Source of the DNA: an uncultured Methanosarcinales archaeon
GTDB lineage: Archaea > Nanobdellota > Nanobdellia > Woesearchaeales > DATGWN01
NCBI GenBank assembly: GCA_964557345.1
Contig: CAZKZU010000004.1
Span: forward strand, 1-57,803
DNA: 57,803 nt
Direction of reading: 5' to 3'
Position 1 is the stretch's first letter, and every line of letters begins with the position of its first letter. The position numbers were made by a program, and so were the translations under genes. This document shows, in pieces, positions 3,787 to 11,327 of the stretch. Under the pieces are notes generated by a model. The model ran no database searches, was not told where the DNA came from, and saw only the letters and a program-made list of their open reading frames with translations.

Positions 3787-4791
3787 TCAGACCTTTTTAA
3801 TAGTTTCCGGATACATAATATCGACAATATAAATAGCTAAATTTCTTGATTTTCCTTTATCTGGGAACATATGCATTTTAATTCCTGGAACGGTATTTAC
3901 TTCTAATATTCTATACATGCTTGGAGTTTGCGGTAATAATATGTCTTTTGTCATGAAATCTATTCCAGCATATGGAAGGCCATGAAATTGTTTTAATGCT
4001 TTTTTTGCTATCTCTAATACTGAGGGATGAATCTTATCAGTAAAGTCTTCACACGTGCCTCCATGAGCAACATTAGAATTATGTCTTAGATATATTTTTT
4101 CGCCTGATTTTGGCACATACGATAAATCAATTTGACTTTTGGCAAGGTATTTTATTACTACGTCATCTAGTTGTATTGGACAAAGAGAGGTCTTTTTAGG
4201 ATCACGTTTTTTTGTTTCAATATTTGCAAGTGTTTTAATATTGTGCTTTCCATCACCAATAATATGGCTTGGATCTCTATGTAAAACTGCATAATCTCCT
4301 TTTTTTGTTACAAACACACGATATTCTTTTCCTTCGAATTGTTCTTCAACCAAAAATGGCCGTTTCCCTATAGAAGATACAACACTATCAATCCCTGCTT
4401 TAACATCACAAAGATTTTCTAAATCCATGTTTACATCATTTCCATGAGATCCAAATACTGGCTTGACGACAATTGGAAAACCTAAACTTTGTGCATATAT
4501 CAATGCATCATCAATGTCATCCTTATTAAATTGCATTCCTTTAACTACGCTAATCCCAGCATGTTGCAATATTAATTTTGTTTTATATTTATCACCAGCT
4601 ATAACAGATGCCGGATATGGATTAATAGAAGAATCCCTATCTAAAATAAATTCTTTGTGCCCTTTGAATTTTGCTTCTAACCATTCTTCTTTTAGTGAAA
4701 TTACTTTTACATCAACGTTTCTTCTTTGAAGCTCTAATACAAGTAATCTTTGATTCGTGTGCAATTCCGCCAATTGTTTTTTGTTCAACAT
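3787..4791 (-). CDS. ATP-grasp ligase (cyanophycin-synthetase/GshF-type ATP-grasp domain, stand-alone)
   Basis: DKYKTK, PIVVKPVFGSHG, EEQFEGKEYR, IGDGK, SNVAHGG, YAGIDFM, ILEVNTVPG. Confidence 0.88.
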   Translation of the reverse strand: MLNKKQLAELHTNQRLLVLELQRRNVDVKVISLKEEWLEAKFKGHKEFILDRDSSINPYPASVIAGDKYKTKLILQHAGISVVKGMQFNKDDIDDALIYAQSLGFPIVVKPVFGSHGNDVNMDLENLCDVKAGIDSVVSSIGKRPFLVEEQFEGKEYRVFVTKKGDYAVLHRDPSHIIGDGKHNIKTLANIETKKRDPKKTSLCPIQLDDVVIKYLAKSQIDLSYVPKSGEKIYLRHNSNVAHGGTCEDFTDKIHPSVLEIAKKALKQFHGLPYAGIDFMTKDILLPQTPSMYRILEVNTVPGIKMHMFPDKGKSRNLAIYIVDIMYPETIKKV

Positions 4792-4794
4792 TTC

Positions 4795-5316
4795 TTAATT
4801 TCTAGACTCACTACTAGTATTTCTACTTTCAGATGAAGTATTCTTTGGAGTTTTCACATATTTTACTTGTTGCCTACTTTCAGATGCGTCAACTCTACTT
4901 TCTGAAGATGAAACTTTTTTAATTGAAACTACTACGGGGCTACTTTCAGATGGTTCTCTTGATTCACTTGAAACTGTTGGAGCTTTAGCATATCCTTTTT
5001 TTGGCAAGTGCGGAATTTTTCCTTGATACATATCTTCATGTAAAATAATTTTATCAATGCCAGCATAAGGTTGAATTTTGATTAATCTTCCAAGAGGATT
5101 TGGTAAATCATCTAATCTACTTCTGATATGACTTGCATCATAACCATTAGCTCCGATTCCCTTATCTAATCCAAAAACGTGAAGTGTTGTTCCTTTTTTC
5201 TCTACCCAATATTTAGTAGTTTCTCTTAAATATAAAGGCATATTCGTTACAAAGTCTACACATGCAGCTATATCTTTTGCACCATATTGTGCAACTAATT
5301 CAAATAATTGTTTCAT
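4795..5316 (-). CDS. Small protein with C-terminal repeated SES(R) motifs; candidate multi-core precursor peptide
   Basis: The C-terminal ~60 aa contain VSSESR, PSESS, SSSESR, ASESR, TSSESRN and TSSESRN*. A GGAGG Shine-Dalgarno lies upstream, and the stop is 3 bp from the ATP-grasp start. Confidence 0.6.
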   Translation of the reverse strand: MKQLFELVAQYGAKDIAACVDFVTNMPLYLRETTKYWVEKKGTTLHVFGLDKGIGANGYDASHIRSRLDDLPNPLGRLIKIQPYAGIDKIILHEDMYQGKIPHLPKKGYAKAPTVSSESREPSESSPVVVSIKKVSSSESRVDASESRQQVKYVKTPKNTSSESRNTSSESRN

Positions 5317-10514: not shown

Positions 10515-10532
10515 TTGAATACTTTATTACTA

Positions 10533-11327
10533 TTACATTTTATTGAGATACATATCTCGAAGTGCAATAAACATCAATTCTCTAACATTTGCATTGAAGT
10601 CTTGTCTAAATGGAGTTTCAATGAAATCATGAGTTGTTACCATTTTATTGTCAACTAATCGCGCTATATGTATTTCAGGACTTCGCCTTGATTTAGGAAC
10701 ATCTGTTCTAGGGGCGATTGATGTTTCTGCTAATACATAATTTAAATTAAATCTTGTTTTTAAGTTAAGTGCACTTTCAATTACTGCTTGTTCGGATACA
10801 AAAGATTCTGTTGGTTTTTCTCCTAACGCAGTATGAGATTCTTTACCATACGGAATTACTCCAATTTCAAAACATTTTGAAGAACCCGAAAAAGATAATA
10901 TAGGACTTAGTCTTGCAGTTACTTCTAAGACGCCTAACTTTCTTCCTTGATTTCCTTGTTCAATCATTAATTCTGATAAACCGCTTTCTAATATTGAATA
11001 TGCAATGACTGCTTGATGCAAAGCATCCGCGATCATTAATTGTTCTCTATTTTCATCCTGATATTTATTTGCAATTTTTCTAGCAACAAATTTAGAAGCT
11101 AAATCGTCTGGAGTGTAATTTTGTTTTCGTCCAGAACTTGCCCATATGTTTAATATTTCAGCAGCCTTTGCAACTTCGTTTGGCCATTTTTTATCATAAT
11201 GTAATCTGTCTATCTCTTGAATAATTAATGTGTTTAAAGAATCTTTATGATGTTCAAATAATGCATCTGCAGGACTTTTGCCTTGACTAAATTTTTTAGC
11301 GTATGTTATAAGTTCAATTTTATTCAT
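10533..11327 (-). CDS. CinA/PncC-like domain protein (degenerate catalytic motif)
   Basis: The C-terminal GSSKCF..G.IPY, VSE..V..SA and LAETSIAP resemble the CinA C-domain. The AESCTGG motif is replaced by LEVTARL. Confidence 0.6.
   Translation of the reverse strand: MNKIELITYAKKFSQGKSPADALFEHHKDSLNTLIIQEIDRLHYDKKWPNEVAKAAEILNIWASSGRKQNYTPDDLASKFVARKIANKYQDENREQLMIADALHQAVIAYSILESGLSELMIEQGNQGRKLGVLEVTARLSPILSFSGSSKCFEIGVIPYGKESHTALGEKPTESFVSEQAVIESALNLKTRFNLNYVLAETSIAPRTDVPKSRRSPEIHIARLVDNKMVTTHDFIETPFRQDFNANVRELMFIALRDMYLNKM

Follow-up and report, generated by a model that had tools for sequence, protein, structure and literature searches.

What do seven co-oriented genes of a probable DPANN archaeon make together, when one of them encodes a small protein that ends in a repeated Ser-Glu-Ser-Arg (SESR) motif? 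The genes lie at positions 3787-11327 of the window, the whole stretch of 57,803 nucleotides analysed here, which is contig C4 of genome G000 (1.84 Mb, 134 contigs, 90% complete). The closest homologues of the window proteins are found in Woesearchaeota, Nanoarchaeota and Pacearchaeota assemblies. The original prediction, made from this DNA alone, saw in them a candidate operon for a peptide that is ribosomally made and then modified after translation (RiPP) or a peptide-nucleotide compound. Our reading, to which we give a probability of roughly 55%, is that they are the archaeal variant of a conserved, sporadically distributed cassette that decorates a dedicated, ribosomally made protein at a repeated motif.

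The proposed operon structure was confirmed. All seven genes are on the minus strand. As predicted, coordinates and sequence show an ATGA overlap at the second and at the fourth junction and gaps of 18, 31, 30 and 3 bp at the first, third, fifth and sixth. The genes and their parts are the following (SAM, S-adenosylmethionine; NMNAT, nicotinamide mononucleotide adenylyltransferase; CoA, coenzyme A):

10533-11327, minus strand: CinA/PncC-like protein, 264 amino acids; accessory gene of the archaeal variant
8124-10514, minus strand: fusion protein of an NadD/NMNAT-like domain and a B12-radical SAM domain, 796 amino acids
9525-10514, minus strand: NadD/NMNAT-like nucleotidyltransferase domain, residues 1-330 of the 796-residue fusion; accessory
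8124-9524, minus strand: B12-binding radical SAM domain, residues 331-796 of the fusion; core enzyme
7387-8136 or 7387-8127, minus strand: P-loop kinase of the dephospho-CoA kinase family, 249 or 246 amino acids; core enzyme
6315-7355, minus strand: radical SAM/SPASM-type enzyme, 346 amino acids; core enzyme
5347-6336 or 5347-6318, minus strand: DUF3419 (BtaA-family) SAM-dependent transferase, 329 or 323 amino acids; core enzyme
4795-5316, minus strand: SESR-repeat protein, 173 amino acids; proposed substrate or scaffold
5245-5304, minus strand: predicted docking helix, residues 5-24 of the SESR protein, interface of the complex model
4798-4974, minus strand: low-complexity tail, residues from about 115 to 173 of the SESR protein, with five (S)SESR units, the last SESR being followed by Asn
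3787-4791, minus strand: ATP-grasp ligase of the cyanophycin synthetase G-domain/GshAB type, 334 amino acids; core enzyme

The fusion gene and the kinase gene overlap in ATGA (ATG 8127-8125 with TGA 8126-8124), as do the radical SAM (rSAM)/SPASM and DUF3419 genes (ATG 6318-6316 with TGA 6317-6315). A near-identical stretch is present in freshwater and lake metagenome contigs from four studies. Since these contigs cover the fusion joint (X1, 8196-9596) and the junction between the ligase gene and the next gene (X1, 3089-5999; X3, 3505-4350) with zero indels, the gene arrangement is not an assembly artefact. The domains claimed for all six enzymes were recovered with Pfam and NCBIfam, and the 173-residue protein has no family in Pfam, NCBIfam, PHROG or PADLOC.

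Is the arrangement found elsewhere? Related loci were collected with an alignment of the B12-rSAM enzyme, taking one genome per species, and the partner enzymes in the 33 loci obtained were located by tblastn with the window proteins. The B12-rSAM, rSAM/SPASM, DUF3419 and ATP-grasp enzymes occur together in 26 of the 33, in several phyla of both domains, which bears out the expectation that homologues would be co-located in other genomes. In four of the other seven loci the sequence stops at a contig or locus end (L008, L011, L021, L022), L013 and L023 hold a partial cassette without the ligase, and L036 is an unrelated, distant B12-rSAM without a cassette. Hosts are DPANN archaea, Peregrinibacteria-type bacteria of the candidate phyla radiation (CPR), Clostridia, Bacilli, Tenericutes-like metagenome-assembled genomes (MAGs), Alphaproteobacteria and Bdellovibrionota, together with one Pseudomonadales MAG and one Gastranaerophilales MAG. 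The kinase gene directly follows the B12-rSAM gene in most loci, or is fused to the next enzyme.

The seven genes do not form a fixed unit, as had been supposed; the part that stands is the conserved enzyme core. The CinA-like gene and the NadD-like domain are found beside the cassette only in the window, L006 and L012, and because they are restricted to these three loci they are accessory. Conversely, a class I SAM methyltransferase of about 228 amino acids occurs in 26 related loci (24, plus L013, plus L031 as a fusion); it is missing from the window and its genome, in which the best match is generic, with 27% identity. The cassette has no conserved peptidase or exporter. A ligase orthologue was found in two of 60 relatives of the window genome, and in none of nine from the same family. 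In viral contigs, 51 pattern matches were found and none was confirmed as a relative of the B12-rSAM. The B12-rSAM tree (29 rows, without the window, L011, L029, L031 and L036) contains a Firmicutes clade and an archaeal grade, with a Gram-negative plus CPR clade nested within the grade. This topology points to infrequent transfers from phylum to phylum, with vertical descent and loss thereafter.

The SESR protein itself consists of a folded N-terminal domain and a Ser-rich C-terminal tail with five Glu-Ser-Arg (ESR) units. Five ESR in a protein of 173 amino acids were reached by none of 2000 composition-preserving shuffles, and among the 7564 open segments of at least 50 amino acids in the 1.84-Mb genome the SESR protein is the only one with five; the runners-up are an open reading frame (ORF) of 2827 amino acids with three and one of 205 amino acids with two. 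Its N-terminal domain (about 100 amino acids) is homologous in six DPANN loci and is modelled by AlphaFold2 (AF2) with a predicted local distance difference test (pLDDT) score of 84.9. Foldseek found no match for the domain in the PDB at E ≤ 0.001, and a word-based search with it returned only the protein itself (1 hit among 2 candidates). A pol-beta-type nucleotidyltransferase palm fold was considered for the domain (best Z 5.6, root-mean-square deviation 4.8, 94 aligned residues), but no such fold was assigned because this Z score is below a meaningful level and the conserved acidic residues are absent.

In the window and 15 other loci, (G/S)-E-S-R repeats are found in a Ser/Gly/Tyr-rich segment of an ORF beside the ligase gene. 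The two genes are always beside or near each other and in most loci directly adjacent; the exception is L012, in which the repeat ORF adjoins the rSAM/SPASM gene. At least two ESR occur in 18 of the 8580 open segments of the related loci (at least 30 amino acids, six frames), and 17 of these 18 lie inside cassettes. When the 17 repeat proteins are pooled, the order ESR occurs 82 times and each of the five other orders of these residues 0-4 times. For 15 of the 17, none of 2000 shuffles reached the observed ESR count, the weaker cases being L006 and L020. With variants of the motif in the remaining clades, SESR-like ORFs thus track with the cassette, as the original prediction had asked, and we are highly confident that cassette and motif belong together.

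Outside the repeats the proteins are unrelated between phyla: a globular domain in DPANN, a coiled coil in Firmicutes and short basic tails in Alphaproteobacteria. In Clostridia and Bacilli the repeats are N-terminal, often from the first residues, with the coiled coil after them; in Tenericutes-like genomes the order is reversed, with the same coiled coil at the start and the repeats at the end. Another 144 clusters were retrieved with a profile of the Firmicutes proteins and, where named by their source, are called only 'hypothetical protein'. Of the best 120 of these 144, 113 have at least two ESR, a set that is biased because the repeats were in the profile; Met-Ser-Glu-Ser, Met-Glu-Ser-Arg or Met-Glu-Ser-Asn opens 93 of them, and 43 have ESR-Trp as their last residues. 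Gram-negative and CPR proteins encoded at the same place carry other units, SENL/GENL (L016, L019), ETP (L017) and GES (L015), and the repeat ORF of L031 carries GES units when read with code 25. The proteins of L017, L018 and L034 end in Gly-Glu. All that is constant across the clades is a Glu preceded by a small residue and followed by a small polar one (Ser, Thr or Asn), and the type of motif tracks the B12-rSAM enzyme tree. The ESR unit was also considered as a phosphopantetheine-type Ser attachment site; this was rejected, as alphaproteobacterial cassettes have Asn in place of the Ser.

Multi-core RiPP precursors typically carry their core motif several times and have a recognition part apart from it, and the Arg that closes each ESR would offer a regular cleavage site. 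In a classical pathway of that kind all enzymes would act on the ESR residues and the tail would then be cut into short modified peptides: for example, the B12-rSAM would C-methylate Arg or Glu, the rSAM/SPASM enzyme would cross-link or epimerise, the kinase would phosphorylate Ser, and side chains would undergo aminocarboxypropylation and ligation. The variation of the motif and the gene content make this unlikely, since Ser-Arg is replaced by Asn-Leu or Thr-Pro where all enzymes including the kinase persist, and neither a peptidase nor an exporter is conserved. In particular, cassettes with Asn in place of the motif Ser retain the kinase, and thus the kinase is not aimed at this Ser in all clades.

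Which enzyme, then, would act on the repeat protein? The best candidate is the ATP-grasp ligase, orthologues of which are found at 37-67% identity in 26 loci. Its best NCBIfam match is cyanophycin synthetase (E 3.9e-67, 227 bits versus a cut-off of 850), of which it covers profile positions 209-474 of 862, that is, the G domain; it has no M or N domain and does not reach the family cut-off, which is set for the full multi-domain enzyme. Its best PDB matches are likewise cyanophycin synthases (E 5e-45, 7lgm), and other relatives by sequence are GshAB and N-acetylglutaminylglutamine synthetase. These nearest relatives, the cyanophycin synthetase G domain and GshAB, join a free amino acid to a carboxylate. 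Matches to LysX and RimK are weak (E 8.8e-12 and 8.3e-13), and there is no graspetide model among the 25 of 32 NCBIfam matches listed.

A model of the complex of ligase and SESR protein obtained a score of 0.68, whereas the best of three controls obtained 0.01. Of 80 solved complexes 58 attained the 0.68 mark, as did 2 of 110 mismatched pairs; since the present model was run with our own alignments, this calibration is only rough. The complex-model runs had a contact agreement of at least 21% and a partner pLDDT of at least 63. The predicted interface is formed by residues 5-24 of the SESR protein and residues 93-101 and 126-132 of the ligase. A helix motif, Y-G-x-x-D-I-x-x-x-V-D, is common to the SESR protein and to the proteins of Bacilli and Tenericutes, where it lies in the coiled-coil handle. 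Pfam detected no RRE domain in any cassette protein.

An ATP-grasp enzyme beside a dedicated protein also recalls the carrier-protein logic of LysW/LysX and of the pearlins, in which an amino acid would be loaded onto the Glu side chains by the ATP-grasp enzyme, turned by the other enzymes into a small metabolite or cofactor while tethered, and released; the repeat protein would be a reusable, multivalent scaffold. Glu is the only constant residue of the motif and the non-repeat parts are freely exchangeable, the Gly-Glu ends in L017, L018 and L034 resemble the C-terminal Glu of LysW, and the LysW pathway has its ATP-grasp step ahead of a kinase step. We nevertheless regard a carrier function as improbable. 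No release hydrolase is conserved, the ligase is of the cyanophycin synthetase/GshAB type with the weak LysX/RimK matches given above, and to our knowledge the carrier proteins described so far have one attachment site, not 3-13.

The remaining core enzymes point to the chemistry that might precede ligation. The B12-rSAM domain matches Pfam Radical_SAM (E 8.9e-16); its own B12-binding match is weak (18.6 bits, below the cut-off of 32.1), while homologues at 39-53% identity carry PF02310 and PF04055, with PF02310 on six of seven close homologues. The CxxxCxxC cysteines C535, C539 and C542 are invariant in the B12-rSAM alignment (A1). The CxxxCxxC core together with the N-terminal B12-binding domain identifies it as a radical SAM enzyme that depends on cobalamin, orthologues of which were found in 32 loci. 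It matches the model for the glutamine C-methyltransferase of methyl-coenzyme M reductase (E 8.7e-23 for the window, 1.8e-35 for L027) and also ApyD. The original prediction called the gene combination unexpected for an archaeon of reduced metabolism that would probably have to scavenge cobalamin. B12 dependence is not exceptional in this genome, in which five further ORFs have B12-binding matches. A PduO-type corrinoid adenosyltransferase was not found in the 90% complete genome.

The kinase matches Pfam CoaE (E 7.4e-13, 49 bits versus a cut-off of 27), as do all 19 of 19 cassette kinases, and misses the equivalog level of true CoaE (TIGR00152, 43 bits versus 65.55). When a profile of the kinase family was compared with the PDB, the top 15 hits were dephospho-CoA kinases (DPCKs), with a best E of 7e-25, and the next family followed at 6e-5. 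The genome has in addition a housekeeping fusion of phosphopantetheine adenylyltransferase (PPAT) and DPCK on contig C5, and the cassette kinase is a divergent paralogue of it. This 379-residue ORF (G000:C5:21800-22801, minus strand) joins a cytidylyltransferase-like domain (63.9 bits) to a CoaE domain of bacterial type (109 bits) and has the look of an archaeal CoA synthase in which PPAT and DPCK are fused. A few kb from it lie two ORFs for B12-binding radical SAM proteins (C5:14012-14341 and C5:17667-17993).

It might be argued at this point that ordinary enzymes of nicotinamide adenine dinucleotide (NAD) and CoA housekeeping are merely clustered here and that the SESR ORF is a chance low-complexity frame. 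The CinA-, NadD- and CoaE-like domains do belong to housekeeping families, and in the genomes behind L027 and L014 (G062 and G063, 1.4 and 1.7 Mb) the cassette kinase is the sole CoaE-family match; CoA synthesis could be incomplete in these two, or the cassette kinase could be bifunctional and also serve CoA synthesis. We give the housekeeping explanation next to no credence: the window genome has its separate PPAT-DPCK gene, no cassette protein reaches an equivalog cut-off, the N-terminal domain of the SESR protein is conserved in six loci and confidently modelled, and synteny extends across several phyla.

The rSAM/SPASM enzyme matches Pfam Radical_SAM (E 1.4e-25) and, all far below their cut-offs, NCBIfam models including StsB, AhbD, NirJ and PqqE. 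Its matches begin at profile position 98 for StsB and 114 for AlbA, but at position 2 for AhbD; it thus lacks the N-terminal peptide-recognition extension (about 100 positions) that StsB and AlbA have as peptide maturases, and its alignment with AhbD and similar small-molecule enzymes runs over the whole length. The viperin cut-off is not reached (60.9 bits versus 180). For a multi-core RiPP the two radical SAM enzymes thus speak on both sides: the B12-rSAM matches models of RiPP and protein C-methyltransferases and the rSAM/SPASM enzyme those of sactipeptide and other maturases, yet the latter is without the StsB/AlbA N-terminal part, and the kinase is specifically DPCK-like and not of a protein-kinase type.

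The DUF3419 protein matches the N-terminal third of the Pfam model only (positions 3-126 of 385; E 1.8e-13, 50.9 bits versus a cut-off of 28.2), and the Atlas clusters nearest to it are DUF3419. Representative clusters of homologues number 76 at E ≤ 1e-30 and 682 at E ≤ 1e-10. It has no PDB sequence match; its AF2 model (pLDDT 93.7) shows a generic class I SAM-transferase fold, for which the fold search gave ties between spermine synthase (Z 14.5), many methyltransferases (Z 12-14) and MccD (Z 12.8). Nicotinamide N-methyltransferases were among the top Foldseek rows (E about 1e-5, template modelling score 0.4-0.5), which was not taken as a link to the NAD-related accessory genes.

In several loci the tailoring enzymes are fused to one another: kinase and rSAM in L027 (489 amino acids), kinase, rSAM and DUF3419 in L028 (804 amino acids), rSAM, DUF3419 and methyltransferase in L031 (860 amino acids under code 25), and rSAM and DUF3419 in many others (about 630-670 amino acids). 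The ATP-grasp enzyme is absent from all of these fusions. Together with the missing StsB/AlbA N-terminal part of the rSAM/SPASM enzyme, this suggests separate modules, a tailoring module that would work on a common intermediate and a ligation module that would consist of the ligase and the repeat protein.

How might the decoration proceed? The repeat protein would dock on the cyanophycin-synthetase-like ligase by its short N-terminal helix. The ligase would activate the side-chain carboxylate of the motif Glu, the presumed anchor, and join an amine-bearing group to it. This group would have been made or tailored from SAM-derived building blocks by the B12-rSAM, the DPCK-like kinase, the rSAM/SPASM enzyme and the DUF3419 protein, joined in most other genomes by the class I methyltransferase, and the decorated protein may be the end product. 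DPCK phosphorylates the 3'-OH of the adenosine ribose; since the cassette kinase is DPCK-like, an adenosine-containing intermediate is plausible by analogy, and the group probably holds an adenosine-type ribose that the kinase phosphorylates. The NadD-like domain and the CinA-like protein would be lineage-specific additions to this small-molecule branch.

The original prediction had left two routes, direct multiple modification of the SESR peptide and the building of a nucleotide-derived group that is then ligated to it. The second fits better and the first less well, because only the Glu is constant, the tailoring enzymes are fused without the ligase, and it is the ligase that is modelled to dock the repeat protein. 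For ligation anchored on Glu we see the odds as slightly better than even. A more detailed proposal, which we consider tentative and on balance unlikely, is that a fused radical SAM complex assembles a SAM- and adenosine-derived group, which receives an amino-acid handle from the DUF3419 protein and a ribose phosphate from the kinase and which the ligase grafts repeatedly onto the Glu residues of the disordered (G/S)ESR tail. If so, the product would be a peptide-nucleotide brush on a lineage-specific handle, in DPANN, CPR, gut Bacilli and predatory bacteria.

Several observations weigh against decoration by ligation. The complex model is a prediction from alignments of six rows only, and the helix pattern, which among 777 ORFs picks out 11, every one a repeat protein, was composed after these had been seen. 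The solved relatives of the ligase use C-terminal alpha-carboxylates, not Glu side chains, and L013 and L023 are without an ATP-grasp gene in the available sequence. As to the motif, L006 has one ESR only, which 238 of 2000 shuffles reach, the motif counts of the long coiled-coil proteins of L018 and L034 are not above those of shuffles, and the identity of the Gram-negative and CPR repeat genes is based solely on position and short motifs. The window copy has no methyltransferase, and it may make a different product or be in partial decay. In the reduced Firmicutes G062 and G063 the kinase is, as mentioned, the only CoaE-family match. Finally, chemistry on the peptide at Arg or Ser is possible in the ESR clades, SPASM and B12-rSAM enzymes being classic direct modifiers.

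The two accessory functions have a common theme. The CinA-like protein matches Pfam CinA (E 5.8e-6, residues 143-246) and has no PDB sequence match; characterised CinA-type domains are deamidases of nicotinamide mononucleotide (NMN). The NadD-like domain matches NCBIfam NadD models below their cut-offs (E 1.6e-6 and 1.1e-5), and in a profile search against the PDB all 14 of 14 hits were adenylyltransferases of NMN or nicotinic acid mononucleotide, though weak ones (best E 2.2e-4). It is fused to the B12-rSAM in the window and is encoded by a separate gene in L006 and L012. Judged from these similarities, a pyridine-nucleotide-like module appears to be attached to the B12-rSAM in three Woesearchaeota-type loci (the window, L006 and L012). 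A NUDIX gene lies between the CinA-like and nucleotidyltransferase genes in L012, and an unrelated NUDIX gene is found near the cassette in L020. In L010, L011 and L013 a gene for a cytidylyltransferase-like protein of 183-185 amino acids (archaeal NMNAT type) is located directly upstream of the B12-rSAM gene, at the place taken in the window by the fused NadD-like domain. This type has no pairwise similarity to the nucleotidyltransferase of the window (E 0.33) and may be a housekeeping neighbour.

Downstream of the ligase gene follow three further genes:

2855-3712, minus strand: ShosA-like (DprA-like) gene, 285 amino acids; PADLOC ShosA E 4.3e-53, profile positions 23-274 of 303
1712-2848, minus strand: ShosT-like gene, 378 amino acids, with a HAD-like N-terminus and a phosphoribosyltransferase C-terminus
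1215-1643, minus strand: NUDIX hydrolase, 142 amino acids; PADLOC candidate PDC-S07, E 4.4e-17

The ShosT match (E 6.4e-8) covers C-terminal profile positions 129-212 of 237 only, and the gap between the ShosA-like and ShosT-like genes is 6 bp. These neighbours raise the question of whether the cassette could serve anti-phage defence or conflict by making a modified nucleotide, jointly with the ShosTA-like pair and the NUDIX gene. Besides the matches to ShosA, ShosT and PDC-S07, the patchy distribution among the 60 relatives, the pVip matches of the rSAM (3.6e-22) and the match of the B12-rSAM to the candidate PDC-M51A (4.3e-10) would agree with it. We regard it as very improbable, because the ShosA- and ShosT-like genes occur in 0 of 33 related loci, no viral contig holds the B12-rSAM, and the pVip match (77 bits) is lower than those to SPASM families (114 bits), with the viperin cut-off missed as stated. 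In addition, an AT-rich, TATA-like box, judged by eye, is present in the 74-bp spacer ahead of the ShosA-like gene. We therefore treat the ShosTA-like pair as an independent toxin-antitoxin-type or defence neighbour and not as part of the cassette.

A general promoter and terminator scan, which is ill-suited to archaea, gave counts at or below those of shuffles (52 versus 62.5 and 3 versus 3.7). Ordinary genes are found near the cassette, for a homoserine O-succinyltransferase (HTS, E 1.5e-134; 13007-13924) and for an Lhr-type helicase of 988 amino acids (16336-19302). Directly upstream of the B12-rSAM gene, an ORF of 45-65 amino acids is conserved in the DPANN loci L004, L005, L008 and L012; it has no Pfam match and by its look is probably a small DNA-binding regulator. 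A divergent protein of about 290 amino acids with a sub-threshold winged-helix (RuvB_C) match is conserved upstream in L006, L010, L011, L012 and L013. The window has neither gene. L029 and L031 are CPR loci; the genes of L031 fragment under table 11 and are whole under table 25 (TGA=Gly), with 12-32 recoded codons per cassette gene, though the record is labelled Peribacteria.

Does the cassette represent something new? A gene-encoded precursor lies beside modifying enzymes in the window, in 15 loci with at least two ESR and in the loci with variant motifs, as is the case for RiPPs. No paper on the cassette or the motif was found in the literature searched, the coverage of which excludes subscription journals. 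No cassette protein, archaeal or bacterial, reaches its NCBIfam cut-off, and PADLOC gave only weak, partial matches. The original prediction had likewise recognised no named cluster in the combination, which is best read as a RiPP-like class whose motif and set of enzymes are both new. If this is true, the cassette defines a family of peptide- or protein-modifying systems that is uncharacterised and can be searched for by a simple signature, a repeated ESR motif beside a cyanophycin-synthetase-like ligase. The cassette is not rare, with 76 representative DUF3419 clusters at E ≤ 1e-30 and at least 144 Firmicutes repeat-protein clusters, and its hosts include DPANN and CPR organisms, which are deemed poor in secondary metabolism, and animal-gut Bacilli. 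Four SAM-using enzymes and a DPCK-type kinase make new radical SAM or B12 chemistry likely. The cassette would also help to find out what bacterial DUF3419 proteins do apart from lipid synthesis, and the system is small enough for heterologous reconstitution.

Parts of the cassette resemble several known systems. In LysW/LysX, RimK and tubulin-type glutamylation, as in the mechanism proposed here, a dedicated protein receives an amine on a Glu carboxylate through an ATP-grasp enzyme; those systems, however, work at one C-terminal site, lack radical SAM enzymes and employ another ATP-grasp subfamily, whereas the motif here is internal and repeated. In BtaA/BtaB lipid synthesis the 3-amino-3-carboxypropyl group of SAM is moved to a hydroxyl and then N-methylated, and a DUF3419 enzyme adjoins a class I methyltransferase there as well. 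The present setting differs in its protein-modifying context, in the partial DUF3419 match and in the window being without the methyltransferase.

The pairing of a B12-rSAM with a kinase is known from sinefungin. There, as a preprint reports, the B12-rSAM SinC adenosylates arginine from adenosylcobalamin and the kinase SinF then phosphorylates the ribose 2'-OH (10.64898/2026.05.21.726688); here a DPCK-family kinase gene directly follows in most loci. Sinefungin differs in that free arginine is the starting material and the precursor-like peptide can be dispensed with (10.64898/2026.05.21.726688).

In graspetides, too, an ATP-grasp enzyme handles a ribosomal precursor, which is composed of a recognition part and a core that may be repeated. 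Their ligases form side-chain lactones or lactams within the core, and the ESR unit has no partner pair suitable for this across the clades. A graspetide survey seeded with MdnB and MdnC did not include the present type of ligase; a term search in it found no mention of cyanophycin or B12. The closest sequence relative of the ligase is the G domain of CphA1, with which it would have a chemistry in common, the activation of a carboxylate as acyl phosphate and its joining to an amino acid; CphA1 acts on a polymer primer, whereas the ligase here is linked to a specific repeat protein.

In overall logic the cassette comes closest to pheganomycin-type ligation, LysW-type carrier proteins and multi-core RiPPs. 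In pheganomycin-type ligation a separately built non-proteinogenic unit is joined by the ATP-grasp enzyme PGM1 to a multi-core ribosomal precursor. PGM1 ligates at peptide N-termini, whereas the constant residue here is an internal Glu. The pheganomycin cluster genes named in PMC8939145 include a radical SAM enzyme and a C-methyltransferase. Compared by description, the present cassette stands apart from that cluster by its cyanophycin synthetase/GshAB-like ligase, its B12-rSAM, its DPCK-like kinase, its DUF3419 protein and its different motif.

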